Shown here one piece after another: positions 35,666-61,513 of a stretch of DNA of 64,000 nt. The notes under the pieces are model-generated. The model worked only from the letters and a program-made list of their open reading frames with translations. It had not been told where the DNA came from and ran no database searches. Source of the DNA: a virus (Duplodnaviria; Caudoviricetes); the IMG/VR virus record IMGVR_UViG_3300042332_000866, positions 1,517 to 65,516 of that record; one strand, written 5' to 3'. Both the position numbers and the translations under genes were made by a program. Numbering within the stretch: position 1 is the stretch's first letter; the number at the start of each line of letters is the position of its first letter.

Positions 35666-35743
35666 TTAGCAAAAGTCCTCTTCGTGTTTTATTGTTAGGG
35701 GTTTTTTCGCAACCGTACCTTCGCGGTTTAAATATGTGCCCAT
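35666..35743 (-). CDS. 25-aa micro-ORF ending EEDFC, or frameshifted tail of the upstream HNH gene
   Basis: Read by hand: MGTYLNREGTVAKKPLTIKHEEDFC*. Confidence 0.4.
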   Translation of the reverse strand: MGTYLNREGTVAKKPLTIKHEEDFC

Positions 35744-36363
35744 AGAGCACGCCGAACAACCTTACTGATAACTGAGGCTGTCACTCCAACTCGTTCGGCT
35801 AACATTTGCTGCGTAATACCCCCCTCTGCATACCTTCGACGAATGCGTTTGACCGCAGCGGGTGTGAGCTTGGCGAGACCGTTTCTTTCGCCTCTAGCTA
35901 AACATTCAGGACAACGTATTGCGTGGTGCCTAGCTCCTCGTGGACGGCTTTTTGGATGTATCCTAGACCCGTTTGCATCGCCTTTAGCTTGCCTGTTTTT
36001 AGCTACCATATCGCACACGTTATCTAAAAGGGTTCCAAGTTGAAGGTGTAGTGGGTTGCAGCAATCTCTTTGGTCACATTTGTGTAGGATACACGTTTTA
36101 TTCGGGGAGTGGGTGTCTGGTATTAGCCCATACTCAAGAACCCAGGCTATCCGATGCGCTTGCAGTTGATGCCTGTTTGCCCATAACTGCCCGTAACCAG
36201 TTGTGTCTTTATTCCCTAGCCACAACCAGCACCTATCCAAACCTTTATAATGCTTGTTGGTTTGGTCTGGTAAAGGGCCGTTTATCTTGTCAACTCGACT
36301 CCAAAATCTTGCGGTGTCTTTGGCATTCAGTTTTAATAAGTTTGAAGGTTGGCTCATGTTCAA
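35728..36363 (-). CDS. HNH homing endonuclease with C-terminal HTH
   Basis: CWLW, GYG, AHRIAW, LHKCDQRDCCNPLHL motifs. Confidence 0.85.
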   Translation of the reverse strand: MNMSQPSNLLKLNAKDTARFWSRVDKINGPLPDQTNKHYKGLDRCWLWLGNKDTTGYGQLWANRHQLQAHRIAWVLEYGLIPDTHSPNKTCILHKCDQRDCCNPLHLQLGTLLDNVCDMVAKNRQAKGDANGSRIHPKSRPRGARHHAIRCPECLARGERNGLAKLTPAAVKRIRRRYAEGGITQQMLAERVGVTASVISKVVRRALWAHI

Positions 36364-36387
36364 TTATTCCACGGTTACACATAAAAG

Positions 36388-37845
36388 TCAGCAAAAATCT
36401 TCGTCTTCCGCATCAGTTTTGTTTGATGCGCTTATGCGACTTGGGAGGCGCATTCCTTTTTCTCTGAACGACTCTAGCAACTGTAAAGCGGTGAGCAGTC
36501 GGTCCTCGATCATCTTCTTCTCTTCGATGACACTCGCTACAGCGTAGTCAACTGTGTCAGGGCAGAGGATACGGTAAACAGTCACCACGGTGTCTTGTCC
36601 TCGACGGTCGAGACGGGCGATCATCTGCTCGTAGTCTTCACGGCTATAGGTGAGAGTCATCCATACCAACGTGTTGCCGCCGTGCTGTAGGTTGAGTCCG
36701 TGGCCGACACTCTTGGGGTGAGCTACGAGGATGGGGATCTTCTTGTTGTTCCAGTCCTCCAACAACTGTTTCTGTGAGGTCTGGTTCTTGGCGTCCGCAA
36801 AGAACTTAGCCTGTGGGAACGCTTTGCGCAGTCGCTCTTGTTCATGTCTGAAGGCGCACGCTACGAGAACAGGCCCATCTGTCTGCTTGATGATCTTCTC
36901 CAGAGCTTTGATTTTCAGATCGTGGATGTCGTGCCACTTGCTATCGGCGTCGTAGATGCTGCCAGACGTGAACTGGAGCAGTTTGGCGACTAGAGCCGCT
37001 GCATTCGGCGCGGTGATCTCAGCAGACTTCAACTGAAGAACTAGCTCCTTCTCAAACTCCTTGTAGTCGTGGACAAGATTCGGTGGGAGTTTGACTTCCA
37101 CGTCCTCGACCACTGTCTCGGGCAGGTTGAGCCAATCTTTCGAACGAAGAGTGAGCGTGATGTCAGCTAGCCTTTTTTCGATGGCCTCATTGGAGCCAGG
37201 TAGTTCCTTCCACTTGTAGCCTCCGTAACCTGTCTGCTTGAAGTAGGTCTGCTTGAAGTGCTCGAAGGCTCGTCCAAGACGTTTTCCGTTATCGACGAAG
37301 CGAGCTTGGGCGAATAGGTCGAGGAGTGAGTTTGGAGCTGGTGTTCCTGTGAGCGCCCAGATCCTTTTGTGTTGATCATGGGGTATTTCTCGTCTATAGA
37401 GATTTGCCCTACGTCCGGTAGGGTTTTTTAGTTTTGTTGATTCATCTATGATCGTAAGATCAAACGGAAGTCCGAGACCCAGGCTCTTCCGAGTCTTCAC
37501 TAACTCTACGAGCTTGGGTATAGACTCGTAGTTGCAGACATAGATGTGGGCTTGGTTACGCAGGAATGCCCGTTTGCCAGCCGGAGAGCGCAGGTTCGCC
37601 ACCTTCATCCATTTGAAGTCGTCCCACCGCTCGACCTCCAAAGGCCATGTTAGGTTGGCAACGCGCATAGGAGCCAGCACCAGAGCGCCAATGGTCTTCT
37701 TCTGGTGGAATAGCTTGTTCAGTGCGTTGAGCGTCGCTGCGGTCTTACCGATACCCACGCCGACGAAGCCGAGGGCGTGTTCGTGGTCGAGCAGGTGCTG
37801 GGTCAACAGATCCTGTGGTTCTGAGGAGGGGAACTTCATCAGCAA
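36388..37845 (-). CDS. SNF2-like superfamily 2 helicase
   Basis: GIGKT, IIDES, LTGTP, GHGLNLQ, QMIARLDRRGQ; ends EDEDFC. Confidence 0.9.
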   Translation of the reverse strand: MLMKFPSSEPQDLLTQHLLDHEHALGFVGVGIGKTAATLNALNKLFHQKKTIGALVLAPMRVANLTWPLEVERWDDFKWMKVANLRSPAGKRAFLRNQAHIYVCNYESIPKLVELVKTRKSLGLGLPFDLTIIDESTKLKNPTGRRANLYRREIPHDQHKRIWALTGTPAPNSLLDLFAQARFVDNGKRLGRAFEHFKQTYFKQTGYGGYKWKELPGSNEAIEKRLADITLTLRSKDWLNLPETVVEDVEVKLPPNLVHDYKEFEKELVLQLKSAEITAPNAAALVAKLLQFTSGSIYDADSKWHDIHDLKIKALEKIIKQTDGPVLVACAFRHEQERLRKAFPQAKFFADAKNQTSQKQLLEDWNNKKIPILVAHPKSVGHGLNLQHGGNTLVWMTLTYSREDYEQMIARLDRRGQDTVVTVYRILCPDTVDYAVASVIEEKKMIEDRLLTALQLLESFREKGMRLPSRISASNKTDAEDEDFC

Positions 37846-38153
37846 AATTCAGTTGTTTGTCCTAATAGTTTCCGAATGAAGGCTTGCCCGCCTTCGACAT
37901 CGTCGCACCAAGTCACGTTGCAGTTATGTGACGCGAGCAGCTCCATCTCTTTCAGCTGTAGTGTGGTCGGCTTTTTGCCTTTGGCCTTCACTTCGAGGAA
38001 CCCAATCACACCTTGCGAGGTGATGATCATCCGATCCGGCACGGCTCGCCTCGCCGGACTAGTGAACTTCATATACAAGCAACTGTGTTTCTTGGCGAAG
38101 TCACCGATCTTGCGTTCGATGTCTTTTTCGAGCTGGGGACCGATGAGTTTCAT
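37839..38153 (-). CDS. VRR-NUC nuclease
   Basis: EKDIE...VPDR...FLEVKAKGKKPTTLQ; probable start MKLIG; ends TEFC. Confidence 0.85.
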   Translation of the reverse strand: MKLIGPQLEKDIERKIGDFAKKHSCLYMKFTSPARRAVPDRMIITSQGVIGFLEVKAKGKKPTTLQLKEMELLASHNCNVTWCDDVEGGQAFIRKLLGQTTEFC

Positions 38154-38323
38154 AGTCTTGCCTCCTCGACTCGGACGTTCTTCTCCAAGCGTTCGATCCA
38201 CTTTGGAGCCGAGCACCGGACTAGGACATACGAAACCAAGGCAAAAGTGAACCCGAGCAGGAACACAGGCGGAACGAAGTTCGTAATAATGCGGTTGAGT
38301 TGCTGACGGAGATCAGGTTTCAT
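38150..38323 (-). CDS. Small membrane protein
   Basis: 57 aa read by hand (MKPDLRQQLNRIITNFVPPVFLLGFTFALVSYVLV...). Confidence 0.5.
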   Translation of the reverse strand: MKPDLRQQLNRIITNFVPPVFLLGFTFALVSYVLVRCSAPKWIERLEKNVRVEEARL

Positions 38324-38619
38324 GTCTCGACCCCTGAAGTTAAAGCGTCTGCAATCTCATAGGCTTTTTTAACCCCTTCTTTTACATCGAGATCCAGTCT
38401 ATAGCTAGGATTTTTAGACTGAATCATAGCGACAATAATGCTATAAGCTCGTTCTTCGCGTTTACTGATAATGTAATTTTCGTGAAAAGCTACAGTTTTA
38501 CGAAGCTGTTCGTTTTCAGCTTCTAAAGCTGCTATTTTACGGCTGGAATTTTTTACCACTTCTTTGAGTTGGTATTCTTTTTCTTCATGCCAATCTTTTG
38601 CTTGTTGGTGTAGGATCAT
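38320..38619 (-). CDS. Hypothetical coiled-coil protein
   Basis: ORF in the operon, probable start MILHQQ. Confidence 0.55.
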   Translation of the reverse strand: MILHQQAKDWHEEKEYQLKEVVKNSSRKIAALEAENEQLRKTVAFHENYIISKREERAYSIIVAMIQSKNPSYRLDLDVKEGVKKAYEIADALTSGVET

Positions 38620-38620
38620 A

Positions 38621-39220
38621 TTAAAACGTCTCCAGTTTGAGTTGTTGTTCTGCATCTGCCGCAGCTTGGTTTTCCGCTGCGCACAGTTCCTGAAAGCATG
38701 GTAGCAAGATCAGGTGGTTCACTTGCGAGATGGCGTCGTCGAGAGCGTTGTGGTGCGTCCCAACGCGCTTTGGCATCTTGATGTGCGGATACATCGCCTT
38801 GAGAGTACGGTAGCAACGGTCATGCCAGAAAGCCCAAGGTGCTTTTAGGCCGATATTGTCGTAGGCAGCTTTCAGGAGAGCGTTGTCGAAGTTGGCTCCA
38901 TTGCCCCAGAGTTCAACGACGTTGCTTGGGTAGCCTAACCATTCAGTGAAAGAATTGAGAACGTCGTCTATAGCGAAAGCCTCTTTCTGAAATTCAGAAC
39001 GAGCTTCGTCCGACTGACGCATCCACCATTTGATCGTCTCGATGTCGATGAGCATTCCAACATCGACGCAGCTTTGCAGGTCGATACGCATGTAGAAGGG
39101 CTCGCCGTAAGGTCCGTTTTCGTCGAACTTGGTTGCTCCAATGGAGGTGATAACTCCGCCCGGACGGGTCGAAAGTGTCTCCAGATCGCACATAACGCGG
39201 GTTGGTTTTAGCTTTTGCAT
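38621..39220 (-). CDS. DEDD 3'-5' exonuclease (exonuclease VIII N-terminal / DUF5051-like)
   Basis: CDLETL, WGNGANFD, HNALDDA. Confidence 0.85.
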   Translation of the reverse strand: MQKLKPTRVMCDLETLSTRPGGVITSIGATKFDENGPYGEPFYMRIDLQSCVDVGMLIDIETIKWWMRQSDEARSEFQKEAFAIDDVLNSFTEWLGYPSNVVELWGNGANFDNALLKAAYDNIGLKAPWAFWHDRCYRTLKAMYPHIKMPKRVGTHHNALDDAISQVNHLILLPCFQELCAAENQAAADAEQQLKLETF

Positions 39221-39225
39221 AAATG

Positions 39226-39453
39226 TTATTTTTTGAAAGTTACGCTCGATTTGAACAGCAGATTGCTAAGAAGCAAGATGCCGAAGGCTTGGGTTAAAGT
39301 GATCTTCGTGAGTCCAAAAATTACTGGCATGAGCCAGTTCCAAAGAAGCCACACAGGCAAGCTGATGATCAGAGAAATGAGCCCTGCAAGCATCAGAGAA
39401 CCGACGATTGCTGCGGAGAATACAAGGAATTTTTCAAGTAGGGTAGGTTTCAT
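39226..39453 (-). CDS. Small membrane protein
   Basis: 75 aa, hydrophobic, LWNWLMPVIFGL motif. Confidence 0.7.
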   Translation of the reverse strand: MKPTLLEKFLVFSAAIVGSLMLAGLISLIISLPVWLLWNWLMPVIFGLTKITLTQAFGILLLSNLLFKSSVTFKK

Positions 39454-39466
39454 AGTTTAGACAGTA

Positions 39467-39495
39467 ACTTTATTTCAGTTTCTCGAAACTGTCTA
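39467..39495 (-). promoter_or_regulatory. Sigma70-like promoter with operator in the spacer
   Basis: TAGACA-17 nt-TAAAGT; spacer contains TTTCGAGAAACTGAAA. Confidence 0.55.
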
Positions 39496-39498
39496 GTT

Positions 39499-41703
39499 TC
39501 ATTTCTGATAAAATTCAACCTCCCCGCCCTCAGCGGCAAGAGGCATTCCTTCAGCCCAAGGTGGCAGTTTGGTGAGGCACTCGACGAAGTGATTCGGAGA
39601 ACGATCTTCAGATAGGTCATACTGAGCTAAATCTTCATCGTGAATAATCATCAGGGTTGGATAGCCCGCTGCTTCGGCTTGTAGTAATCCGTTCGCCATG
39701 AAGTCACCTGCGATTCCTTGAATCTGATTGTTGCAAAAAATGCCTGGATGGGTCTCGACACGTCCCCAGTGAACGCTGGCGGGTAGCTGAGAAAAGATGG
39801 TGATGGCTTCACCGAGACGAACTCCTTTGATGTAAGGCTTCTTGGCTTGTTTTAGCGCCGTTCCTTCCAGTTCCTTCTGCTTTTTTGCTTCAATCTGTGA
39901 AGGTGTCGGGTTGAACAGTTTTTTGACTGTCGGTTCCTCGACCAGTTCGCCATTTTCATCTTTGACGAAATTTATCTCGGTCCACCGTAACTGAGGAATG
40001 ATCTCAGGTCTTGGATAAGCTATCTTCCGTCCGCTTGGCAGACGCATGAAGAGATACTTCATCCCTGCGGTGTGGGTGCTAAAGAACGAGCATCCTTTGC
40101 CAAACGGGAATACTTTTCCTGGAGTCCTGATGGCTGTTTTAGATGCTCGTTCGATGTCTCCCCACATCTTGACAATGGATGGGTTGGCCTCTCTCCAAGA
40201 CATGATGATTCCTGGGAGTTCCTTCTTGGTGAGTCCTTGCTTGAGAGCGCCCATTCGGACAAGTGCGCCTGTCCCGCCTGCGTACCCACAGGCCAGCTCG
40301 CCAGCCTTCGCTTTTTGACGTAATGGGTGATGCTTTCCGTGCTCCTTTTTGTAATCGTCAAAATCCTTCATCGTGACTCCGAACATCTGGCAGGCAGCGG
40401 CTTCATAGATCTTTCCGTGACCTTTGAATACTTCGAGCTTCCACTTTTCATCAGCTTGCCACGCTAGTAGGCGTGCTTCAATAGCTGAGTAGTCGGCGCT
40501 AAGCATCGGTTTACCGTCTTGGATAAAATGACGGATACAGGAAGCAATAACTTCCAGCGGGGGTCCATAGTTAAGACGCAGCCAGTCAGTATTACAACCT
40601 TCTTGAATGTCTTTGTAAGCGGATGGAGATAGACTCTCCATATATGGCGCGGGCTTCTTGAAGTTCTGCGGCTGCACCAAAGATGCGCTCCATCTTCCTG
40701 TGCCTGCTCCATGGTAGGTATGTGTTCCTCGGACGCGATTGTCCTGCGGCCCAGCGCAACTTATCATAGTTGGGATCTTCTTCAGAGATGCGAAACTGAT
40801 ATGCTTCTTGATCTTTAGCACCTCCTTCAGTTCAGGTGAAGCTGCTTCGTCCTCTTCATCAAAAGTCTCAAAAAACTCCTCCAACGTAACTGCCTGTAGA
40901 TTGTCGTGTTTAAACCCACGCTCTTTCAACCAAACAAGCAGCTTGGCACCTTGGGATGGTTTCAAACCTGTAAGAGCTAAAAATTCTGTTTCCAATCTCT
41001 CAGTCTCCTCGTTCACCAGCTTCTCAGCCTTCCGCAGCGCGTCCAGATTTACTGGGAAACCGCGACAGTTGATCTCAATATCGAGCAGGAAAGTTTGAAG
41101 CGGAAAGCCTGTTAGCTCGAAGTCTTTGAGTAAAGTTTTTGCTTCTCTTTCGGTCCTAGAATCTTGTAAACAATACTGACAAAAATCTCTGAATGCTTCT
41201 GGATCATCATTCGGATCAATGAACTGACCTTTATGCTTGCCTGCTGTCTGAGGCACAGAGAATTTTCGTATAAGACCCTTCCCTTTACTGTCCTTCAAGT
41301 TTGTTAGATTCAAAGTCTCGGCTAGTTTCTCCAAACTACCTGGGAGAGCGGCTCGTCTAGCCATAGCCGCAACACACCTCCACTGTTTGTGAGGGATAGC
41401 CGGGTATCCGGTAGTGCTTTCAAAAAGAGAATCTGTGATTGCAATCTCAAACCCAGCGTTGAATGCTGACACAACAGCTTCTGGCTTGCTTAAATCAGCA
41501 AGCTCATTGTCTGGAACTATAGGAAGGTAGCCTTGAACAATAGAACGCCATTTCTTCGGAACCCAGATTCTAGGCTCTTGATTTTCCTTCAATAAACTGA
41601 AGCATAGAATCTCTGTGGTATTATCTCGCGCATATCTGTGTGCCCCACTTTTGCGAAGATCAACACGACTCCTAGTTTCATAATCAAAAGAGTACTCAGG
41701 CAT
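39499..41703 (-). CDS. Family A DNA polymerase with 3'-5' exonuclease domain
   Basis: DYETRS exo I, TGRWS, DYSAIEAR (motif A), RQKAKAGELACGY (motif B), IHDE (motif C). Confidence 0.92.
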   Translation of the reverse strand: MPEYSFDYETRSRVDLRKSGAHRYARDNTTEILCFSLLKENQEPRIWVPKKWRSIVQGYLPIVPDNELADLSKPEAVVSAFNAGFEIAITDSLFESTTGYPAIPHKQWRCVAAMARRAALPGSLEKLAETLNLTNLKDSKGKGLIRKFSVPQTAGKHKGQFIDPNDDPEAFRDFCQYCLQDSRTEREAKTLLKDFELTGFPLQTFLLDIEINCRGFPVNLDALRKAEKLVNEETERLETEFLALTGLKPSQGAKLLVWLKERGFKHDNLQAVTLEEFFETFDEEDEAASPELKEVLKIKKHISFASLKKIPTMISCAGPQDNRVRGTHTYHGAGTGRWSASLVQPQNFKKPAPYMESLSPSAYKDIQEGCNTDWLRLNYGPPLEVIASCIRHFIQDGKPMLSADYSAIEARLLAWQADEKWKLEVFKGHGKIYEAAACQMFGVTMKDFDDYKKEHGKHHPLRQKAKAGELACGYAGGTGALVRMGALKQGLTKKELPGIIMSWREANPSIVKMWGDIERASKTAIRTPGKVFPFGKGCSFFSTHTAGMKYLFMRLPSGRKIAYPRPEIIPQLRWTEINFVKDENGELVEEPTVKKLFNPTPSQIEAKKQKELEGTALKQAKKPYIKGVRLGEAITIFSQLPASVHWGRVETHPGIFCNNQIQGIAGDFMANGLLQAEAAGYPTLMIIHDEDLAQYDLSEDRSPNHFVECLTKLPPWAEGMPLAAEGGEVEFYQK

Positions 41704-42616
41704 ATTGCAAAGGTTGTGTTAGAGATTTTTCAACGGTCCAGCCAAAAACACGCAGTCTAGCTGCCAAAGTCTGAGGTTTTAACCCAACTGTTTCGGCCCA
41801 CTGCGTTAGAGTTTTAGTCTGCCCTTTGAAAGTTAAAATCTTATTGCGGCATTGGTTGTTCATTTGTTCTTTGTGGGTGGCCCACCGAACATTTCCTGGT
41901 TCGTAATGTCCGTTATTGTTGATCCTCTCAACTGTATGCTGCTCTGAAATAGGCTGTCCTATGTCGTCAACAAAACACAAGAACCCTGACTTTGATCCAT
42001 CTCCTTCCTGCCATCTTTTGCATACCTGTATGCCACGCTCTTTGTATCGGTGATTTATCGGTTCATCTTTGTAGCAACGAATATGCATAGCTTTCCATGC
42101 TTGGAGTATCTTTGAATATTTCCGGCCTACAGTGTGCCCGTGCGAAAGGTTTAACTTACGGACAGTTTCTTTCTGCAAACACCCGCAAGACTTGGTGCTC
42201 CCTGACAGCACGTGGTACCTGTTTCCTTTCCAGAACTTGCCGCAGGAGCAAACTCCTTCTGCTCTCATCCCATCATCGGCAGTAATGGTTAGTTGGTGGT
42301 ATGTTTTTCCTACCATTTCCCTAGGTTTTGTGTGTCGAGGTGAACGTGAGCATCCACAGGAAGTTGATTTTCCTTTCAGGACGTTACCATACCGACCAGC
42401 CCACTTTGTCCCGCACGCACAAATAGCTTCTACATGCCTCTCTTTATTGTACCGGATGCCTGTGATGGTAAGACTACCGTACGTCTTTCCCAGCATTTGA
42501 TTTCGGACGCCCACCTTTCCGACCGTTATTCCTGGAGGCCGACCTCTTCGCTTCGGACTTGGAAGAGCCGCCAATTTTTCCGAGTGTGGCCGCTGCTTTG
42601 CTGATTTTTGTTTCAT
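41696..42616 (-). CDS. HNH homing endonuclease with duplicated CxCG N-terminal modules
   Basis: CACG/SCGC repeats, ERINNNGHYEPGNVRWAT. Confidence 0.85.
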   Translation of the reverse strand: MKQKSAKQRPHSEKLAALPSPKRRGRPPGITVGKVGVRNQMLGKTYGSLTITGIRYNKERHVEAICACGTKWAGRYGNVLKGKSTSCGCSRSPRHTKPREMVGKTYHQLTITADDGMRAEGVCSCGKFWKGNRYHVLSGSTKSCGCLQKETVRKLNLSHGHTVGRKYSKILQAWKAMHIRCYKDEPINHRYKERGIQVCKRWQEGDGSKSGFLCFVDDIGQPISEQHTVERINNNGHYEPGNVRWATHKEQMNNQCRNKILTFKGQTKTLTQWAETVGLKPQTLAARLRVFGWTVEKSLTQPLQYA

Positions 42617-42622
42617 TTTTCA

Positions 42623-42651
42623 TGTGTAACCTAAGCGTATGAGTTTGTCAA
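42623..42651 (-). promoter_or_regulatory. Sigma70-like promoter, near-leaderless
   Basis: TTGACA-17 nt-TACACA, 6 nt before ATG 42616. Confidence 0.55.
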
Positions 42652-42668
42652 TACTTTGTTGGAAAACA

Positions 42669-42793: not shown

Positions 42794-42804
42794 TATTTTC
42801 AAAA

Positions 42805-42977: not shown

Positions 42978-42982
42978 AAATT

Positions 42983-45043: not shown

Positions 45044-45733
45044 TTAGACTTCCTTCTGATCTTCTTCGTTGGCGGCGAGATACTCGCGGATCTTGGCCTC
45101 CATCTGACGGAGCATGTCAGGGTCAGACATCTCACGGGTCATCTTGGCGAAGCCGAGAGTATCGTTGCGGAAATCGACGAGCAGCTTGGTGTACTTGGTG
45201 TCCTTGAGAGGCTTCATCAGTTCGACAAGCTCCGTGCCGGACAGGTAAGGCTCCTCTTCCACGGCTGGCGCTGGTTCTGGCGTTGGCTCAGGAGCAGGTG
45301 CTGCCTCAGCTTTTGCCTTAGTACCGCGCTTCTTGACGGGTTCGGCGGGTTTGTCTTCGGACTCATTGGTGCCAACAGAGCCTACAGAGCCTACACAAAC
45401 GTCGTTCGGAATGATGACTCCTTTGGCGGTGGTGTTGCGGTCGATAGCTTCGACGAGTGGCTTGATGAGGATTTCGTAGATGTCGTTAAACAGGGTATTC
45501 ATAGATGTATGTTTTCGTGTTTTTTGTTGTGGTTTTTCTGTCGCGTCTTGTGACGCTACTGGAAAGGTTTTTAGGCTGGCTTGGATATAAGCCTTGTGGA
45601 AGTCGCCTCCGCGTTCGTTGGCTACTTTGATGAGTAGTGAAATGCTCTCGGTGTCTCGCTCATCTTGGCTGTGCCATTTCGCTTGGGACAGGCACTTGCG
45701 GTAAAAGTCAATCGTAAAGTCGGCTGGTTGCAT
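45044..45733 (-). CDS. Hypothetical protein with Pro/Ala linker
   Basis: ATG 45733 overlaps the primase stop; alternative start at 45502 (MNTLF). Confidence 0.6.
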   Translation of the reverse strand: MQPADFTIDFYRKCLSQAKWHSQDERDTESISLLIKVANERGGDFHKAYIQASLKTFPVASQDATEKPQQKTRKHTSMNTLFNDIYEILIKPLVEAIDRNTTAKGVIIPNDVCVGSVGSVGTNESEDKPAEPVKKRGTKAKAEAAPAPEPTPEPAPAVEEEPYLSGTELVELMKPLKDTKYTKLLVDFRNDTLGFAKMTREMSDPDMLRQMEAKIREYLAANEEDQKEV

Positions 45734-48634: not shown

Positions 48635-48925
48635 TCAAACGAAATCGTCTTCCGGTTCGACTTTCTTCGTCGCAGGTATTTTGGCGATCAATATTGTGCG
48701 CCAGCCGCCGTGTTGACCGAGCGACACGCGATCCAGGAGCGCGACGTTTTTACCTGAGTTGGCGGTGTTGGTGATGAAGTCGTTCACTTTGGGTAGAGCT
48801 AGGTGAATGATCTCAGGGTAAACGGTGTATCCCTCCGCTTCAGGGAATAGCCAAACGTCGCAGTCTGGCGCGGCTCGTCGCATCTCGGCAACTTTGTTTT
48901 TGATGAATTGATCAATGTTGTCCAT
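48635..48925 (-). CDS. Hypothetical protein (ends EDDFV)
   Basis: 96-aa ORF in the operon. Confidence 0.6.
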   Translation of the reverse strand: MDNIDQFIKNKVAEMRRAAPDCDVWLFPEAEGYTVYPEIIHLALPKVNDFITNTANSGKNVALLDRVSLGQHGGWRTILIAKIPATKKVEPEDDFV

Positions 48926-52238: not shown

Positions 52239-52523
52239 TTATGCGAAGTCGGTTTCTTTGCGACTACGACGCAAGATCGTGATGTAGGATGGGGTGCAGC
52301 CGAGTTTCTTGGCATTTTCGTTGTTGCTGAGTGACCAGTCGATCTCGTTAAGCGCGAGCTTCTGAGGTCTGCCTGAGCCTGGACTGCGCGGTCCTTTAGG
52401 CTTCCCACGGAGACGGCGGAACTGGCTAACGACGGCGCTGGTAGCTTGGTACTTAGCCGCGAGTGTGCGGTTGTCGTTTTGACTCCATTCGGAGTCGGAT
52501 ATGCTGTGCAAGTTTGAAGGCAT
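52239..52523 (-). CDS. Putative double-HTH DNA-binding protein
   Basis: Two similar units WSQNDNRTLA.../WSLSNNENAKKLG; own promoter. Confidence 0.55.
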   Translation of the reverse strand: MPSNLHSISDSEWSQNDNRTLAAKYQATSAVVSQFRRLRGKPKGPRSPGSGRPQKLALNEIDWSLSNNENAKKLGCTPSYITILRRSRKETDFA

Positions 52524-54603: not shown

Positions 54604-54608
54604 GGTTT

Positions 54609-54809: not shown

Positions 54810-54852
54810 AGCGTGGGTGCGTTTAGTTGCATGGTTTTCATGGCTTTAAAAA

Positions 54853-55089
54853 TCACCAGTTTACAGGTTTAATTTCAGGAAAGCCCATTGCTGAAGCGGT
54901 TCTAGAAGCCGAGCGGTGGCTTTTGAAGCGGTAGGCTTTTTCTAACCTGCCCATTTCAGGGGAGGGAGTGCCATCTTTTGCGATAGATCCATCAGCTAGA
55001 CGGCAGTATCCTTTAGGAGCAACCACAGCGCTAACCGATTCGTGCGCTCCCTTCGATAAGATAATATATTGAGTATTTTTAGTTTCCAT
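54853..55089 (-). CDS. Early hypothetical protein
   Basis: Probable start METKNTQ after a repeat copy. Confidence 0.55.
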   Translation of the reverse strand: METKNTQYIILSKGAHESVSAVVAPKGYCRLADGSIAKDGTPSPEMGRLEKAYRFKSHRSASRTASAMGFPEIKPVNW

Positions 55090-55184
55090 AGTTTCTAGGC
55101 GTGGTTTTCCGTTCACCGCTTTGATTCGGTGCATGGGGTTACTTTCTAGGCGTTTGAAAGTGTGAAATGAGTTACAGACTGGCG

Positions 55185-55601
55185 CTATTCAGCCCCGACT
55201 TCGTTTTTGTCCGTGACGTACAGATTAATTACGGGGTAACATTTCGCCAGTTTGGTGAACGTATCGCCGTACGTAGGATAATATCCATCCCAGAACCCGG
55301 CCCCGTGGCCGTTCTGAGTAAGCCAGAAGTCATGGCCTGCTTGGCTGGCCTCGGGCTTCTCGCCTTTCCTGCCTTCCTCATAATTGAGATAGTACCACAT
55401 GCGAGACCAGAACGAAAAAGCATGGGCGCGTAGGATTTCGCGTGATTCGTCCGTGAAGTCGTCCGTGCTGAAATGCCTGTCGAATGGATCGCCGTCACGT
55501 TCCCCAGGTTCGCCGTCGCTGTCTTCTGATATTGTAGACGACCACAGGGCCGCGTGTAAATAGGATCGAAAAAATTCAGGGAAGTCTGCTTTAGTTGTCA
55601 T
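55185..55601 (-). CDS. Early hypothetical phage protein
   Basis: YLHAALWSS...AGHDFWLTQNGHGAGFWDG motif. Confidence 0.7.
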   Translation of the reverse strand: MTTKADFPEFFRSYLHAALWSSTISEDSDGEPGERDGDPFDRHFSTDDFTDESREILRAHAFSFWSRMWYYLNYEEGRKGEKPEASQAGHDFWLTQNGHGAGFWDGYYPTYGDTFTKLAKCYPVINLYVTDKNEVGAE

Positions 55602-55708
55602 GGTAGTTTGGTTTTTTTTAGTGCGTGGTTTTCCGTTCACCGCTTTAGGTCGGTGCGTGAAAGTTGTTTTTGTGTGTCTGGATGTCGGGGGCGGGTTATA
55701 GAATGGCG

Positions 55709-56272
55709 CTATTCGGCAGAGCAGAGGGCCGCTTTTAGGTCTTCCGCTTCTCGGGCTTGTTCTTCAGCTTCTCGGGCTTGGTCTTCAGCTTCTTGCTGCT
55801 CCCTTTCATCTTCCGCGATGCTTTCGGCCAGGTCGTCGGCTGCGCGTGCTGCGTCGGTCTCAGTTTCGTAAATATCGCCTTCGATGGCTGAGGCCATGCC
55901 CTCGCCCATTGTCCAGCCTGCCAAGAATCCGCGTGAACGTGGCAAGCGGAAAACTAGGCCGCGTATTTTTGAATCCTGATAATTGTCCGCGTACCATCCT
56001 GTGTGTTTGATGCGCGTGCCTGCTACCTCATCGCAGTGTTGCCAGCGTAGCGCGAAAGGTGCGGATCTGTCACCGAGATAAAAGCCTTTGCCTTTTCCGG
56101 CCTGCTCGGGTTTCGGCGCATGGTAGCAGGGGCCACATATCGGCCTTTGATATTGTCGCAGCCTGTCAGACTTCGGCCCGCGTGGCAGGCTGGCAACGTA
56201 GCGAGGCCAAGAAAATCCGGCAAAGGTGAACTCGGGGGCAGGGAGAGTGAATCGGCTTGTGTGGGGTTTCAT
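55709..56272 (-). CDS. Early hypothetical phage protein
   Basis: IKHTGWYAD...IRGLVFRLP...AARAADDLAE; probable start MKPHTS. Confidence 0.65.
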   Translation of the reverse strand: MKPHTSRFTLPAPEFTFAGFSWPRYVASLPRGPKSDRLRQYQRPICGPCYHAPKPEQAGKGKGFYLGDRSAPFALRWQHCDEVAGTRIKHTGWYADNYQDSKIRGLVFRLPRSRGFLAGWTMGEGMASAIEGDIYETETDAARAADDLAESIAEDEREQQEAEDQAREAEEQAREAEDLKAALCSAE

Positions 56273-56374
56273 GGTGTCCTGATTTTCTTTGGGTGTGTGT
56301 GTGTGTTTCGGGCCGCGTTTGGCCTCGCTACCGCCCCTAGATTTCTGGGATCTGGGGGCGGGATGCGGGGTCAA

Positions 56375-56566
56375 TTAAGCAGCGTCACAAGCGTCTTGCC
56401 ATCCCTCGCCAGTTTTGAGGAAAAGAGCGGTCAGAGAGGCTTTTAGTGGGGAGTACCCGCATTCGTCTTGTAATGCGTGACGAATGGCGTTCTGGCTGTA
56501 CCGCTTGGCCTGCTTTCGTGCGGTTGTGATATTGCCGTTGATGAAGTTTTCAATTAAAGAGTTCAT
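56375..56566 (-). CDS. Early hypothetical protein
   Basis: Start MNSLIENFINGN. Confidence 0.6.
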   Translation of the reverse strand: MNSLIENFINGNITTARKQAKRYSQNAIRHALQDECGYSPLKASLTALFLKTGEGWQDACDAA

Positions 56567-56570
56567 AGAT

Positions 56571-56729
56571 TTAGTCTTTCCAGGTTTTGCAAGCACGGGT
56601 TGAAAGGTAATAATGCGCGGAGGGGTCCGAAAGTCGGTATTCTTTGAGCATTTCCCGCGCCTCTTTGCGCGTGTCGAATTGATCCACTGTTTCGAGGTCT
56701 TTCCCGTCTTTTCTTTGGATGTAGTACAT
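56571..56729 (-). CDS. Early hypothetical protein
   Basis: MYYIQRKDG...ETVDQFDTRKEAREMLKEY...RACKTW. Confidence 0.65.
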   Translation of the reverse strand: MYYIQRKDGKDLETVDQFDTRKEAREMLKEYRLSDPSAHYYLSTRACKTWKD

Positions 56730-56772
56730 GGTGTGGCTTTTCTTTGGTTTGGGTTTGATGGTGTGGGAAGTT

Positions 56773-57249
56773 TTAGAGCATGTTCGCGAGCGCTCCGAAA
56801 CGCTCAATCTGTGCGGATGTCAGACCAAGGGCGCGAAGTTTTGGGCCCAAATTCTGGCAGTCTTCATAAATGCGAAAGGCTTTCCGGCTGTCTTGATCGT
56901 ACCCGAAATCATCCGACCAGTCTGCAAAGCTGGCGTTGATTGTAGAGGTATAATCCGCACAGACCCGGCCTAGAACCTCTGCCGGATCGGGTTTTTTAGG
57001 GCCAAGTACGGTTTTACCGTCTCGGGCTTTGATGGTGTTTCCTACACCGCTTTTCCAATCAAAATAAACGGGAGTCTTCCCCGTAGGACAGAAACCTAGC
57101 TGGAAAGCGTAATGTTTCCAGCCGTCGGAATCGGTCGCGATGTGGCCGCCGTGAATCTGTGTACCATTTTTCCAGCCTAAAGCTGAAAATTCAGTGGCTA
57201 GGATTTCGGCGGCCTCTACGTGGTCGGTGATTTCTTCAATAGGTTTCAT
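56773..57249 (-). CDS. Early hypothetical protein
   Basis: FADWSDDFGYDQDSRKAFRIY motif. Confidence 0.7.
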   Translation of the reverse strand: MKPIEEITDHVEAAEILATEFSALGWKNGTQIHGGHIATDSDGWKHYAFQLGFCPTGKTPVYFDWKSGVGNTIKARDGKTVLGPKKPDPAEVLGRVCADYTSTINASFADWSDDFGYDQDSRKAFRIYEDCQNLGPKLRALGLTSAQIERFGALANML

Positions 57250-57290
57250 AGTGTCTTGTTTTCCTTTGTGTGTGGTGTGGTGTGGGGAGA

Positions 57291-57467
57291 TTAGGCTTTG
57301 TACTTGTCGTTTGTGGCATCCTGCCAGCCAGCATTATAAGCTTGCGTTTTGACGTGACGGAAGAGCTGCGCGTCGTGGCGCTCGCGTCTCCAGACTAGGA
57401 CAGTGAAAGCAGCCGTGGCTGCTAAAGAGCCACACAGGAAAGCGAGGATTGAGGGGAGGAATTCCAT
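57291..57467 (-). CDS. Small early membrane protein
   Basis: 58 aa read by hand (MEFLPSILAFLCGSLAATAAFTVLVW...). Confidence 0.5.
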   Translation of the reverse strand: MEFLPSILAFLCGSLAATAAFTVLVWRRERHDAQLFRHVKTQAYNAGWQDATNDKYKA

Positions 57468-57485
57468 GGTGTTTTTTGGGTGTGA

Positions 57486-57632
57486 TTAGCGAGTGAGGAA
57501 AAAGGCAGCGACTAGGCCGAAAGAGATCAAATATATGGCTGCATCTTCAAGGCTGCGACGGCGGGCTTCTTTGGCGCGGGCTTCGCAAATTGCGAACCAT
57601 TCGTTTGCATGGGCTTCGGATGAGTTTTTCAT
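57486..57632 (-). CDS. Small early membrane protein
   Basis: 48 aa read by hand, C-terminal TM segment; first gene after the promoter. Confidence 0.5.
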   Translation of the reverse strand: MKNSSEAHANEWFAICEARAKEARRRSLEDAAIYLISFGLVAAFFLTR

Positions 57633-57677
57633 TTTTTTGGTGGAGTTGAGTGTTTTTAGCTCGTTTGAGCGTCCCCA

Positions 57678-57730
57678 TCATTACCATACCGCCGAAAAGC
57701 TGACAAATGTTTTTTTATTTTATTTTCATT
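57678..57730 (-). promoter_or_regulatory. Major leftward (early) promoter with A-tract UP element
   Basis: TTGTCA-17 nt-TAATGA preceded by AATGAAAATAAAATAAAAAAA. Confidence 0.55.
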
Positions 57731-57734
57731 AGGA

Positions 57735-58320
57735 GGTTTAAACCGTTGGTTGTGAGTAAAAAAGAGTCAGTCAGAAATGGTGCCAAAAGTTTGGAATTGG
57801 TAGTATTTTAAACTGTGGCTTGGTCTCGGCTTATATTTTGACCATGTTTTTTCTGTCTCATATAACCACGGGCTTGGCTTTTTACGGTCGTAAATTCAAC
57901 CACGGTCAAAAAGCCAAACTTCTGGCAGTGTTTTGGCAGCTTGGGACTGCCACAATCGCTGCCAGCTTTATTTTCTGGCAGCGATTTGGCAGCTGTTTTG
58001 TCGCACTATCATTCGTTAGGCCAAATCTCTTGAAACCCTTATTTTATAAGGCTCGCAGCGTGTAGCTGTTTTTTTATTAACTGCATTTTTAGATAGCTTA
58101 TGGCTAATTATTTTGAATAAAGTGTCAGATTGCATACAGGAACGAAAAAGGAATTTACCGGTTATATAGAGCAATACATATTTATACATGCCCCACATTT
58201 GATTTCCATCCTGAAGGAAAATGCAAAAGAAACCTTATTTTCTGACATCTGACTGAGTGTTTTTTAGTTAACTATTTTTAAACTCAAAACAGACGTTTTT
58301 TAGTTTCTTATATATTCGGG
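57735..58320. other. AT-rich non-coding divergence region, candidate replication origin or genome end
   Basis: No credible ORF; clustered TGGCAG motifs in both orientations next to AT-rich tracts. Confidence 0.45.
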
Positions 58321-58348
58321 TTGAATGTTTTATAAATATAGTTAAACT
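58321..58348 (+). promoter_or_regulatory. Rightward promoter, near-leaderless
   Basis: TTGAAT-16 nt-TAAACT, 8 nt before ATG 58357. Confidence 0.55.
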
Positions 58349-58356
58349 CCTGATAT

Positions 58357-59073
58357 ATGGTCAAGAAGATTATGATGTCCCCTTTTCAGCTCCCCGAGGA
58401 GCTGGCTACTAAATTGCGCGATGCTGTGAGATCGCGCGGTCTCACACTGTCGAGCGTTTACGAACAAGCGCTGACACAGTGGCTCGAAGCTGGTGGAACG
58501 GGCGAAACTGAGACAAGCGAGAAAACGGAAAAGGTTTTCTGCCCGGCAGGTATGAAACTGGTTTCGGGTTTTCCGGCTCCTCCTGATATGGTGGATCGTC
58601 TCACGTCCTTTGCGCCGTCATTGGGCGGGCATGACAAGATGATGGCAGGCATGGTAAAAGGCTGGTTAAATGGTCGGAGATTGCCGGGTGAGAGCTACCA
58701 GAGACCACATGAGGAAAAGCTGACACCAGAGCAGGAAAGAGAGGTCGAACTAGAGCGACGGCGCAAAGTGGCCGCTGTGCGTTATTCTCGCGGGACTCCT
58801 CCCCTTGTGGGGCCAAGCGTCTTTTGGCATAGAAAAGCGCATCCTGCTCCGTGGGAGATTATTGGCCTAGCCTCGCCAGATTGGGACCATTTGAAAGACG
58901 AAATCAAAGCACTCTGTGAAAAGGAGCACGCCGAACACGTAAAAGCACAAGAAGCCGAAGTGAGAGCACGCGCAGCACTGGAACCCGTCGAACCTGCTAA
59001 AAAATACCGTGTAGAGATCCAAGGCACGCGGCTTGTGAAGATCGAGATTAAACCGGAGGGGGATTTCTGCTAA
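58357..59073 (+). CDS. Ribbon-helix-helix (CopG-like) domain protein
   Basis: FQLPEELATKLRDAVRSRGLTLSSVYEQALTQWL; ends EGDFC. Confidence 0.65.
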   Translation: MVKKIMMSPFQLPEELATKLRDAVRSRGLTLSSVYEQALTQWLEAGGTGETETSEKTEKVFCPAGMKLVSGFPAPPDMVDRLTSFAPSLGGHDKMMAGMVKGWLNGRRLPGESYQRPHEEKLTPEQEREVELERRRKVAAVRYSRGTPPLVGPSVFWHRKAHPAPWEIIGLASPDWDHLKDEIKALCEKEHAEHVKAQEAEVRARAALEPVEPAKKYRVEIQGTRLVKIEIKPEGDFC

Positions 59074-59074
59074 T

Positions 59075-59590
59075 ATGGCTGCAAAATCACTTGCCTCTCC
59101 TGACGTGTGGAGAGCTATCAAGCTGGCCTCAATTAGGGGCGTACCTGACGCCGAACTAGCTGAGCATTTCGGTGTGACTACAAATGCAATATCCAGTCGC
59201 CGTTTCGATGATGACGAATGGCGAGCAGCTAAACCGAAACTATCAGGCCTGCCTCCAGTAAGAAAAGCGCAAAGCAAAGCCCAAGACATTCAAGATGTCA
59301 CAGAGGCCAGTTTAGCCGAAATCGGAGAGCAAAATTCCCTGTTGCTTGCTCGCTACGTAGGGCAGAAAATTAAAAACAGCGTTGAAAGTGACCTCCTGCC
59401 CGACCCTGAAGACTGGGCGCAAATTAAAACAGCATCGGAGATCCTCAGAAAAGCGACGGGCCAAGACCGAGATCAGCCAGCTGTGAGCGTCAATCTGTTC
59501 TCAGCCTCCCAGTTTTACGACGACGTGGCCCCGACTTTTGAGGCTGATCTTGTTGAGACTGAGCCCGAAAATACACCAGATTTCTGTTAA
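59075..59590 (+). CDS. Putative terminase small subunit (N-terminal HTH)
   Basis: WRAIK...ELAEHFGVTTNAISSR HTH, helical core, acidic tail; upstream of the portal; ends TPDFC. Confidence 0.55.
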   Translation: MAAKSLASPDVWRAIKLASIRGVPDAELAEHFGVTTNAISSRRFDDDEWRAAKPKLSGLPPVRKAQSKAQDIQDVTEASLAEIGEQNSLLLARYVGQKIKNSVESDLLPDPEDWAQIKTASEILRKATGQDRDQPAVSVNLFSASQFYDDVAPTFEADLVETEPENTPDFC

Positions 59591-59706
59591 ATCACACCTA
59601 AGTCGTTGAGTATCAACGCACAAGCAACTTATCATTACGGTCGTTGTTAGTAGTTAATAAATACCATAACGATTTCGGCATTCAGCGCGGCTGGAAACGG
59701 GATGAG

Positions 59707-59750
59707 CAGGCACACAGGCACACAGGCACGCAGGCACAAGCGGGCACAAG
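59707..59750 (+). repeat. Tandem 8-mer CAGGCAC(A/G) x4 plus a degenerate copy
   Basis: CAGGCACA CAGGCACA CAGGCACG CAGGCACA AGCGGGCACAAG. Confidence 0.8.
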
Positions 59751-59916
59751 GGCCAAGCGCCTGTGTGCTCAGTGGAGGGTGCCTGGCTGCCAGCGACGGG
59801 GGGACGCCCGGCCTACCCTAGGGCTGGATTTGCGGGAGCGTCAGCGCTAGGTAGGGGTTGAGAAAAATTTTGTTTAAAATACACCTTTTCACTTTATCAA
59901 AATAGGTTTATAGGTC

Positions 59917-60666
59917 TTGATGCCAAAACCAAAAGACATACTTGGTCAGAAATTTAATTCTCTAACCGTAGTGGTACTCAATAAGCCCGCTAGTTTTAAG
60001 ATACTCCCAAACGGTCGTAGAGTAACAGTAAGCAACACTTGGGATTGTTTATGCGATTGCGGTAAGACTAGGAACAACGTATCTAGATACCACCTCCAAC
60101 ATGGCAGCATCAAGACTTGTGGATGTATCAAAGAGTTTAACTATGCTAAAACTAGACGCCATTTAACCGAAGGCACATTGACTACTCCACCGTATGCTTT
60201 CTCTAGAGGAGTAGGTAATTTTTACAAAGTGTGGGAAGCTATAAAAATGCGTTGCTACTGCAAGAATCACAAATCCTTCCACAACTACGGAGGTAGAGGC
60301 ATCAAGGTACATTCAGACTGGAAGAGTAGCTATCGTACTTTTGCTATAGCTGTAGGTCCGAGACCTTCACGGCTACATTCCATAGACAGAATCGACACCA
60401 ACAAAGACTATGAACCTGGGAATGTAAGGTGGAGCACCAGCGTAGAGCAGGCTAATAACAAGAGAACGAACATTTGGCTACGTTGGAAAAATGAATCAAT
60501 TACGTTAACAAAACTAGCTGAAAAAGAGCAGGTAAGTTACCGCCTTTTGCATCGACGTATTAAAAGATACAACATGCCTGTAGAAGAAGCTGTATTGAGC
60601 GCTAGAAAAACCGGAAAGCCTTTCATACCACATAGAAGACCAAAATACTCCGAAGATTTTTGTTAA
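59917..60666 (+). CDS. HNH homing endonuclease
   Basis: WDCLCDCG, YGGRGI, SIDRIDTNKDYEPGNVRWST; ends SEDFC. Confidence 0.85.
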   Translation: MMPKPKDILGQKFNSLTVVVLNKPASFKILPNGRRVTVSNTWDCLCDCGKTRNNVSRYHLQHGSIKTCGCIKEFNYAKTRRHLTEGTLTTPPYAFSRGVGNFYKVWEAIKMRCYCKNHKSFHNYGGRGIKVHSDWKSSYRTFAIAVGPRPSRLHSIDRIDTNKDYEPGNVRWSTSVEQANNKRTNIWLRWKNESITLTKLAEKEQVSYRLLHRRIKRYNMPVEEAVLSARKTGKPFIPHRRPKYSEDFC

Positions 60667-60709
60667 AATACGTCTTTACACTTTAAGGAACGTGTATATA
60701 GTTACTCAC

Positions 60710-60944
60710 ATGACCCCCTGCCCTCGAAAAACGCTTCCACGACCTATTGGTCAAAGACCTCAGAGGAGAGACCAGCCCCTCAGAAAAGAAGAAACTCGAC
60801 ATCCTCGAACGTAGGCGCTCAGCACCAACCGACTACGAGAAGAAACAGATCGCACGACTTGATTGGAGCACCTGAGAACTGAAGAGGATACTGGGCGCAA
60901 TCAACCGAACAACTAAAGGAGTCGTACTGCCGAGAAACCCGTGA
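60710..60944 (+). pseudogene. Frameshifted or recoded small gene
   Basis: ATG ACC CCC T; the +1 frame reads PALEKRFHDLLVKDL..., with an internal TGA at 60873. Confidence 0.35.
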
Positions 60945-60990
60945 ACACAACCATCCACCCCACCCACTCGCCTCACCCCCCATCCACCCC

Positions 60991-61239
60991 ATGACATCAT
61001 TCCCCACAGCAACTCAGTCCCGAGCAGCCTCCGTAGCCGCAGCACTCAGAAACAAGCTACAAGGAGAACTCAACGAAGTCGCAGCCCTCATCAACGAGAC
61101 CACCAGCATCAGGCAACTAGAGCTGACCATCATCCGAGCGATCAGCACCCAAGCAACTGAGTTCCTGACAGGGCTTGGTTATCAAGTGGTTCACTCTACA
61201 AGCCTTCACACCGAGGCAAAGACCACGATCAGTTGGTAA
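60991..61239 (+). CDS. Hypothetical protein
   Basis: 82-aa ORF. Confidence 0.55.
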   Translation: MTSFPTATQSRAASVAAALRNKLQGELNEVAALINETTSIRQLELTIIRAISTQATEFLTGLGYQVVHSTSLHTEAKTTISW

Positions 61240-61243
61240 CACT

Positions 61244-61513
61244 ATGCCCGCATTCCAGAAACACGACCTCACCAACCGCACAGTTGGCTACTGGACCGTG
61301 CTTCGCGAGAACAAAGCTCATCGGAAAGAAGTTCAACGCACCTATGCACCAGGCTCCATTGCTCCGACCTTCTGGATATGCAGGTGCATCTGCGGCAAGA
61401 TCAAACCCACCGTTCGCGGATCAGTTCTGATGGATGGACGCTCTCAATCATGTGGGTGCCAGCGGAAACACACCCTCAAGCGTCAAGCTCAACAGGACCA
61501 AGACTTTTGTTAA
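61244..61513 (+). CDS. Stand-alone HNH-endonuclease N-terminal Zn module
   Basis: DLTNRTVGYWTVL...WICRCICG...SQSCGC without a nuclease domain; ends DQDFC. Confidence 0.65.
   Translation: MPAFQKHDLTNRTVGYWTVLRENKAHRKEVQRTYAPGSIAPTFWICRCICGKIKPTVRGSVLMDGRSQSCGCQRKHTLKRQAQQDQDFC

Follow-up and report, generated by a model that had tools for sequence, protein, structure and literature searches.

A shared acidic Phe-Cys C-terminal tail on DNA-acting proteins of a Caudoviricetes phage and its possible role as a docking tag

In this work, we analyzed a stretch of phage DNA (hereafter the window; 64,000 of the 65,516 bases of IMG/VR record IMGVR_UViG_3300042332_000866, Caudoviricetes) in which about ten DNA-handling proteins end in the same short acidic peptide, typically [DE]-[DE]-Phe-Cys. 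We found that this tail is strongly enriched at protein ends, that it is selected as a peptide, that its version changes on several proteins together between phage lineages, and that inserted genes keep or acquire it. A C-terminal docking tag bound by one co-evolving reader protein appears to be the best explanation, which we hold with moderate confidence. Relatives were collected by primase scans and sorted into lineages by how closely their primase matches that of the window: 97-100% identity for A, 82-84% for B, 51-52% for C, 48-49% for D and about 35-37% for E, with locus L042 (41%) standing apart.

Enrichment and conservation of the tail

Open reading frames (ORFs) were picked by a simple longest-ORF rule, without a gene finder. 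[DE]FC followed by a stop codon was observed at eight ORF ends and DFV or DFA at two more (Table 1), and all ten ends quoted in the original prediction were found where it had placed them, with the tails that it had given. Ends of the form [DE]F[CAV] were present on 9 of 88 greedily called ORFs, compared with 0.066 expected from the frequency of internal tripeptides (binomial, 4e-17), and 5000 residue shuffles yielded 0.06 tail-bearing ORFs on average and never more than 2, which bears out the proposed excess over a shuffled background. Only one of the 244 non-chosen ORFs had the tail, and it was the real gene for the 94-aa protein of Table 1.

The tail was well conserved among close relatives. 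In lineages A and B (82-100% primase identity), [DE]F[C/A/V] was kept by each of the 45 ortholog tails, whose last three codons differed by synonymous or Asp/Glu changes only. Codon usage within the tail varied (TTT/TTC, TGC/TGT, GAT/GAC/GAA/GAG, and TAA/TGA for the stop), the residues just before it were free to differ (e.g., GQTT, EKKI, KTDR), and the DFA and DFV tails were unlike the DFC tails at three of twelve bases. In addition, GAYTTYTGYTRA had 26 matches in five related records and none for the reversed control. Because of this synonymous variation, the variable linkers and the 26 versus 0 matches, selection is on the peptide rather than on a DNA repeat, as had been proposed. The degenerate string GAYTTYTGY occurred 15 times in the window, on both strands, and was followed by an in-frame stop codon in 8 cases; all of these 8 stop-bearing copies closed long ORFs in frame, and one orphan copy was a displaced gene end. 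When tested as a repeated DNA element, the stop-bearing motif had no copies outside coding ends; cassette junctions nonetheless coincided with it.

Every carrier that could be placed in a family binds DNA or acts on it, and several are potentially toxic nucleases. No ORF in the virion and lysis half of the window had the tail, which agrees with the original prediction. The tails lie outside the folded domains, since domain matches stop at residue 382 of 403 in the DUF2800 exonuclease, 466 of 485 in the SNF2-family helicase and 792 of 878 in the primase-helicase. The earlier view that the eight Cys-tailed carriers are mutually non-homologous did not hold for one pair: the Zn-ribbon protein is homologous to the N-terminal part of the 249-aa HNH protein (BLASTP E=9e-6 over 29 aa), and both match phrog_374. 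As for the names given to three of the carriers, the 'VRR-NUC' protein is supported as an endonuclease by phrog_93 and has no Pfam match, and the labels 'RHH' (ribbon-helix-helix) and 'TerS' (small terminase) correspond to weak matches to a CopG-like (E=0.056) and a helix-turn-helix (HTH) family (E=0.019), respectively. The predicted model of the 171-aa HTH protein has an N-terminal HTH and a long helix (overall pLDDT, the per-residue model confidence, 61) followed by a disordered stretch over its last 37 residues (135-171, pLDDT <50), and its comparison with PDB returned nothing at E<=0.001 (best row E=0.54), so that the name 'TerS' is unconfirmed. The positional counterpart of the 238-aa protein in genome G005 is barely alignable (E=0.005) and still ends in ..EGDFC.

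A second class of acidic tail, without a hydrophobic residue, was found in lineages A-D on the protein that binds single-stranded DNA (SSB) and on the 229-aa protein encoded between primase and exonuclease. It changed on both proteins together, being GDDV/QKEV (SSB/229-aa) in lineage A and EDAA/KDAA in lineage B. The polymerase was untagged in lineages A-E.

Table 1. Tail carriers and associated features of the window, with ortholog tails in lineages A and B and tips in lineages C, D and E
Feature	Position	Strand	C-terminal end	Family evidence or remark	Orthologs keeping tail (A/B)	Tips in C, D, E
Primase-helicase, 878 aa	45733..48369	-	..NDEEDFC	Pfam PriCT_2, DUF5906, VapE-like; PHROG DNA primase	7/7	C ..ED[LI]C; D ..DEFV; E ..ELL
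DUF2800 PD-(D/E)XK exonuclease, 403 aa	43772..44983	-	..GAEDFC	Pfam DUF2800 1e-59, residues 11-382	7/7	C ..SDIC; D ..EEWI; E ..DLM, ..DLI, ..DMM or ..DLL
Small endonuclease, 125 aa	37839..38216	-	..TTEFC	phrog_93 endonuclease E=1.4e-24; no Pfam match	5/5, ..DFC or ..EFC	C ..NEIC; D ..GEWV; E untagged
SNF2-family helicase, 485 aa	36388..37845	-	..EDEDFC	Pfam SNF2-rel_dom and Helicase_C	5/5	C ..EDFC (FC kept on SNF2 only); D not found in stretches examined; E untagged
96-aa protein	48635..48925	-	..EDDFV	No Pfam/PHROG match	7/7, DFV or DFA	
94-aa protein (carrier added in this analysis)	52239..52523	-	..ETDFA	Orthologs in four lineages	6/6, ..DFA	C ..EDIA; D ..DSFV; E not found in stretches examined
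238-aa protein, weak RHH-like N-terminus	58357..59073	+	..EGDFC	PHROG CopG-like E=0.056		
171-aa HTH protein, possible small terminase	59075..59590	+	..TPDFC	PHROG HTH family E=0.019	3/3	C ..VDIC; D, E not found in stretches examined
HNH endonuclease, 249 aa	59917..60666	+	..SEDFC	phrog_374	2/2; G001 ortholog ..PEDFC	
Zn-ribbon protein, 112 aa	61175..61513	+	..DQDFC	phrog_374 match	3/3, ..QDFC	
gp2.5/Enc34-type SSB, 188 aa	43102..43668	-	..SGDDV (other acidic tail)	Pfam Enc34_ssDNA-bd 3.6e-36; phrog_112		C ..E[DE]DV; D ..SSEI; E ..DLM, ..SLM, ..SMM or ..DIL
229-aa protein, between primase and exonuclease	45044..45733	-	..QKEV	No known family		
Family A DNA polymerase, 734 aa	39499..41703	-	..EFYQK (untagged)	Pfam DNA_pol_A; phrog_17		
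Inserted HNH cassette	35726..36481	-		Replacement SNF2 end and HNH_3/HTH endonuclease ORF 35728-36363; Pfam HNH_3, PHROG HNH endonuclease		
Orphaned native SNF2 end	35666..35725	-	..REGTVAKKPLTIKHEEDFC-stop	Out of frame behind cassette		
Methylase behind exonuclease						D ..EEWI
Small protein behind primase						E ..DLL or ..DLF

Tail versions across lineages and at gene insertions

Comparison of the lineages revealed that the tail is lineage-specific and that its version changes on several proteins together (Table 1). Thus the expectation that related phages share the tail was correct at 82-100% primase identity, and the expectation that distant ones lack it was correct in part, since these have either another version or none. 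The last two residues were non-polar in every version (FC, FA, FV, IC, IA, WI, LM), and throughout lineages A, B and C the enzymes kept Cys at the tip and the 94-aa protein kept Ala.

To place these tips in a wider set, an exonuclease-alignment scan provided 80 loci, 78 of them new and distant, from which one representative was taken for each of 31 clusters at >=50% DUF2800 exonuclease identity. Identical positions in the last three residues were counted against shuffled pairings; the shuffles ignore deeper relatedness, which makes the P values generous. Primase and exonuclease tips (15 clusters) had 13 identical positions versus 5.05 expected (P=1e-4), and exonuclease and SSB tips (30 clusters) had 20 versus 11.25 expected (P=0.003). 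The controls with the polymerase gave 2 versus 1.8 expected for the exonuclease (P=0.58) and 0 versus 1.08 expected for the SSB (P=1.0). Dereplication of identical tail pairs alone overstates significance, and the use of per-cluster representatives erases the signal for the endonuclease and SNF2. Because of the primase/exonuclease and exonuclease/SSB matches, the core of the phenomenon is old and widespread in the module, and its extension to many more proteins is special to the clade of the window. Individual loci of the survey include L090, with ..DDLLG on exonuclease and SSB alike, L114, with ..EDLV and ..DDLV, and a 12-locus cluster with ..ADLI on the exonuclease, ..EGLV on the SSB and ..EGVI on the endonuclease.

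A related pattern was present in cultured phages. Acidic-x-Leu ends were found on 6/12 module proteins versus 1/11 structural proteins in Burkholderia phage AH2 and on 6/10 versus 1/14 in Serratia phage JS26, and in both phages the polymerase is among the tagged proteins, as is the small terminase or whichever protein occupies its place. Phages Salvo and Kokobel1 had little sign of such ends. A third tail type was also seen, which resembles the tip of bacterial SSB (..DDDIPF in E. coli): a 95-aa HNH protein (35128-35415, minus strand) ends in ..EENEPF in lineages A and B (4/4 relatives), and unrelated 187/188-aa proteins of lineage E end in ..EENPF (L040:12713-13276; L037:15487-16053).

Four independent rearrangements, at SNF2, behind the primase, at a slot of genome G002 and behind the DUF2800 exonuclease, bear on the function of the tail. 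First, the SNF2 gene of the window is broken after ..LLES[FY]RE by a 756-bp cassette, which supplies the last ~24 residues of the protein (..KGMRLPSRISASNKTDAEDEDFC) with a new linker and the tail ..EDEDFC-stop. The displaced native end codes for 19 residues that are identical to the last 19 of the intact SNF2 gene (477 aa) of L002; the original prediction had counted it as an additional tagged micro-ORF, and it is actually this orphan. SNF2 is uninterrupted and the cassette absent in L002, L003 and L004, with ~16 nt in its place in L002. The cassette is, in other words, an invading element that restores the tail. Second, a 262/265-aa gene lies directly behind the primase gene in G001 and L025, members of two lineages, and ends in the tail in both; the G001 insert is flanked by a 24-27 nt direct repeat encoding ..ENDEEDFC, and the L025 insert ends in ..NNEDFC. 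Third, G002 has a C-5 methylase (..EDEDFC) at the position that the HNH gene has in the window, and 40 nt downstream of it lies an orphan ..RNPEDFC-stop. Finally, three unrelated bodies were found behind DUF2800, namely two N6_N4 methylases, of 408 and 246 aa, and a Mom-like protein of 167 aa (its Pfam match, E=1.3e-4, does not reach the curated cut-off), and all of them share the last 10 residues ..SAAYPNDDFC (12 between two of them). The exonuclease tail is spelled GAT TTC TGT TAA in four genomes without an insert and GAC TTT TGC TRA in three with one; the former spelling, with the same flank after it, also ends the L022 insert. In L032, exonuclease and methylase both end in ..ETVEEWI.

Tail-coding DNA thus acts as, or at least coincides with, a junction for the entry and exit of cassettes, and because of this newly acquired DNA-modification genes are tagged from the start. 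The junction pattern fits recombination between short repeats, and is by itself no proof that the inserted enzymes need the tail. Two further observations concern these loci. The 262-aa inserted gene was considered as a C-5 methylase; it has no Pfam match and is left as a gene of no known family. The SNF2 gene of G004 (L004:15579-16682; 843 aa) has an in-frame insertion of ~366 aa that is probably an intein, judging from sub-threshold matches to Hint/intein-splicing models (27.4, 25.8 and 24.9 bits).

A possible docking tag, its reader and the alternatives

How might one peptide serve so many proteins? The arrangement of many clients and one hub that had been proposed stays the best reading, with candidates for the hub. 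The tail [DE]-[DE]-Phe-Cys-COOH, in which two small proteins have Ala or Val instead of Cys, would be a label at the tip of flexible C-termini. A common reader would hold the last two residues in a pocket and the free carboxylate beside a basic surface, and would bind every carrier; the carriers would in this way be gathered at one place, most likely the replicating phage DNA. It should be emphasized that we infer the binding itself, the identity of the reader and the destination of the tagged proteins. The one-reader account is the simplest because each genome conserves its tips, the tips vary from lineage to lineage and unrelated folds carry them. The idea that the terminal Cys is a site for modification or conjugation, as the original prediction had suggested, gained no support: Ala, Val, Ile, Leu or Met occupies that position in other members of the tail set and in relatives.

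By analogy with T7, the family A polymerase would be the likeliest single reader among those considered, a tentative choice that is favored because the polymerase is the conserved untagged member of the module. Instead, the reader might be the SSB through its OB-fold (oligonucleotide/oligosaccharide-binding fold), the 229-aa protein or a protein of the host. An OB-fold reader is conceivable from the acidic end of the Enc34 SSB, which lies in a neighbor's groove according to the available part of its description (PMC5686142). The 229-aa protein, a candidate reader or adaptor, was modelled (mean pLDDT 67) as two small helical domains with a disordered linker, KKRG..AKAE, between them, and it had no PDB fold match at E<=0.001, no Pfam match and no Atlas match above 0.78. 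In L032 and L033 this linker reads KKRGRPAK, which is AT-hook-like. A link between the presence of the 229-aa protein and wide use of the tag was dropped, as lineage E has a protein of similar build at the same place (by eye: a short N-terminal helix, a charged linker and a helical C-terminal domain). Co-folding of the polymerase with primase residues 815-878 gave a score of 0.00 versus a mark of 0.32, in a run without controls, and counts neither for nor against binding.

Several observations weigh against a general docking tag or against the polymerase as its reader. First, several proteins of the window that act on DNA have no tail: the polymerase, the exonuclease of 199 aa and two HNH proteins (306 and 211 aa). 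Second, the front basic patch of T7 (around residues 587-591, KWKRRW) has no clearly basic counterpart in the polymerase alignment, and the polymerase of AH2 and JS26 ends like the clients, which is a misfit with a polymerase that reads the tail universally. Third, the system is not family-wide, with no shared tail in L042 (41%) and L006 (36%), and the co-change amounts to about three version changes in few related lineages without a rooted tree. Fourth, in the clustered survey there was no significant match between exonuclease and endonuclease tips (5 versus 4.07 expected, P=0.39), exonuclease and SNF2 tips (6 versus 3.76, P=0.16) or primase and SSB tips (7 versus 6.08, P=0.39; 14 clusters), and many clusters had no match at all, such as one of 31 loci with ..ADFK on the exonuclease and ..DFLG on the SSB. 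Finally, the tails of some inserted genes may be just duplicates of the resident tail.

A more elaborate form of the docking tag is a private address code, which we regard as a rather doubtful extension. Here the reader would recognize [DE]-hydrophobic-small-COOH tips with a specificity that drifts by lineage (FC, IC/LC, WI/FV, LM), and the code, first used by a core trio (primase, exonuclease and SSB), would have spread to HNH endonucleases, to enzymes of DNA modification and to proteins with a possible part in packaging. The tag DNA would serve as a plug-in slot, and the split between Cys and Ala/Val would represent two affinity tiers or a redox- or metal-sensitive switch.

ClpXP-like AAA+ proteases read C-terminal degrons, and an ssrA-like degron ends in ..LAA. 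The tail might be a degradation signal whose non-polar last residues and free carboxylate are recognized by a host AAA+ protease or a phage adaptor, which would limit the lifetime of nucleases, helicases and methylases. Of the features of an ssrA-like degron, only the non-polar last residues are matched. These residues, non-polar at the last two positions in all versions, and the potentially toxic nucleases among the clients would suit such a role, and lineage-specific versions could follow different hosts. We nevertheless consider it unlikely: the carriers include the primase-helicase and the exonuclease, which are needed throughout replication, and the nearest studied tails on homologous modules, those of T7, dock rather than degrade in the accessible part of that report (PMC12339929).

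An equally unlikely explanation dispenses with a common reader. Each acidic tail would mimic DNA, folding onto the surface with which its own protein binds DNA and tuning that binding, and the likeness within a genome would result from common descent of tail DNA that is copied at cassette insertion. In the Enc34 SSB crystal, as far as the available text describes it, the acidic C-terminus occupies the groove of a neighboring molecule and its removal alters DNA discrimination (PMC5686142). The DNA-related assignments of the carriers agree with such a role, and duplication of the tail at insertion is seen directly in the repeat flanking the G001 insert and in the two copies of ..ETVEEWI in L032. 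However, there is no need for every one of these unrelated folds to have an identical final pair of residues, the tails inside one genome differ in codons and so are not recent copies of one another, and the Cys versus Ala split has been kept over lineages A, B and C.

Still less probable is that the DNA site is primary, with GAYTTYTGYTRA as a recombination or homing junction for mobile cassettes and the peptide as a by-product of in-frame reading. Several features point this way: the motif borders cassettes on both sides, the spelling of the exonuclease tail tracks the presence of the insert (four without, three with) and recurs over an identical 12 nt at the end of the L022 insert, and the phage encodes at least five HNH endonuclease genes. 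However, 8/8 window copies are in-frame ends of long ORFs, with none in non-coding DNA or in a different frame; the orphan is a displaced gene end. Moreover, variation is limited to synonymous and Asp/Glu changes, TTY is replaced elsewhere by ATT, ATC, CTC or TGG with the peptide pattern kept, and the DFA/DFV tails depart from the DFC tails at 3/12 bases.

The suggestion that the acidic codons form a ribosome-binding site for the next gene, or that the end residues tune termination, was rejected as very unlikely: GAGGA-like strings do lie 9-13 nt before three downstream starts (the 229-aa, 84-aa and 171-aa genes), but five tails have no nearby start codon behind them, most of the 29 starts inspected by eye (6.8-61 kb) have no Shine-Dalgarno-like string upstream, and Phe-Cys is left unexplained. 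The same starts suggest that the host makes little use of Shine-Dalgarno sites.

Known systems, genomic setting and meaning

The original prediction knew of no described phage system of this kind; the principle is in fact already in print for T7 and T4. In the available part of one study, the gp2.5 tail of T7 anchors on a basic patch at the front of the gp5 polymerase, as judged from simulations and tail truncations, and a DTDF peptide present in PDB entry 6P7E serves as a mimic of the gp4 tail (PMC12339929). We checked the ends of both T7 proteins (gp2.5 ..EDGDF, gp4 ..NDTDF), and both are ..D-x-D-F. The window resembles T7 in having an acidic run with a hydrophobic or aromatic tip at the free C-terminus of unrelated replication proteins of one phage, in its type of module (family A polymerase and gp2.5-type SSB) and, in lineage E, in one tip common to primase, exonuclease and SSB. 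However, it has at least ten carriers compared with two in T7, among them HNH endonucleases, enzymes of DNA modification and proteins with a possible part in packaging; the tail here has Phe in the penultimate position and a small residue (C/A/V) at the end; primase (..EEDFC) and SSB (..SGDDV) of the window do not have a common tail, as those of lineage E (..ELL and ..DLM) do; and the primase-helicase is of the SF3 (superfamily 3)/VapE type, not DnaB-like.

In T4, gp43, gp55 and gp33 bind the gp45 clamp through interchangeable hydrophobic-acidic C-termini, according to the accessible part of that work (PMC2988020). Similar C-termini on unrelated proteins, with many clients, one tag and (here proposed) one hub, are common to both systems, whereas the motif differs and the client set is larger here. 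No PHROG match to a sliding clamp was obtained among the 43 window ORFs scanned (28.6-64 kb only; a distant clamp could escape). The bacterial beta-clamp-binding motif is QL[SD]LF, and Q-L at positions -5/-4 was found in none of the ten tails. Acidic, hydrophobic-tipped motifs are also the currency of DNA-metabolism interactions for E. coli SSB and for eukaryotic RPA70N, one hub that binds acidic-hydrophobic motifs of many clients; in contrast with the window, the tail of E. coli SSB sits on the hub, and the RPA motifs are internal helices instead of free C-termini. No paper on tails common to many proteins in this phage group was found, with subscription journals and supplements outside the search. 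What we did not find described are the Phe-Cys tip, the number and kinds of carriers, the Cys versus Ala/Val split, the second tail class on SSB and the 229-aa protein, and the cassette slots bounded by tails.

The T7-like replication module lies on the minus strand, in the order 87-aa HTH protein, primase-helicase, 229-aa protein, DUF2800 exonuclease, gp2.5/Enc34-type SSB, HNH protein, family A polymerase, 199-aa exonuclease, small endonuclease, SNF2 helicase and more HNH genes. Searching INPHARED at the DNA level with a 4.6-kb piece of the module returned no match, so there is no close cultured phage in that collection, and the primase-helicase has <30% identity to Casjensviridae proteins, such as those of AH2 and JS26. 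The polymerase is just 81% (G001) and 61% (G002) identical although the primases there are 97-98% identical, which indicates module exchange inside the clade. The sole terminase-like match is a weak one (phrog_2, E=3.4e-7), which lies on the minus strand (31874-33787) and is separated by 25 kb from the possible small terminase. Among other ORFs, a long one at 62057-64000 (plus strand) has no family match, and an 89-aa protein (61573-61842, plus strand; phrog_10346) ends in ..AARKRWAC, an end also kept in lineage C (L029:7359; L031:11180). The record (genome G000) starts and finishes with the same 127 bases, the pattern of a circular assembly or of a terminal repeat.

The shared docking tails of T7 and T4 hold replication machines together with two or three proteins, and here at least ten are labelled, with a label that changes jointly on several proteins between lineages and passes to newly acquired genes. 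If one reader exists, membership of the phage DNA factory would be definable from sequence alone, tagged orphan proteins would gain hints of function, and tag and reader would make a portable pair. The related pattern in cultured JS26 (Serratia) and AH2 (Burkholderia) means that the question is open to bench testing.

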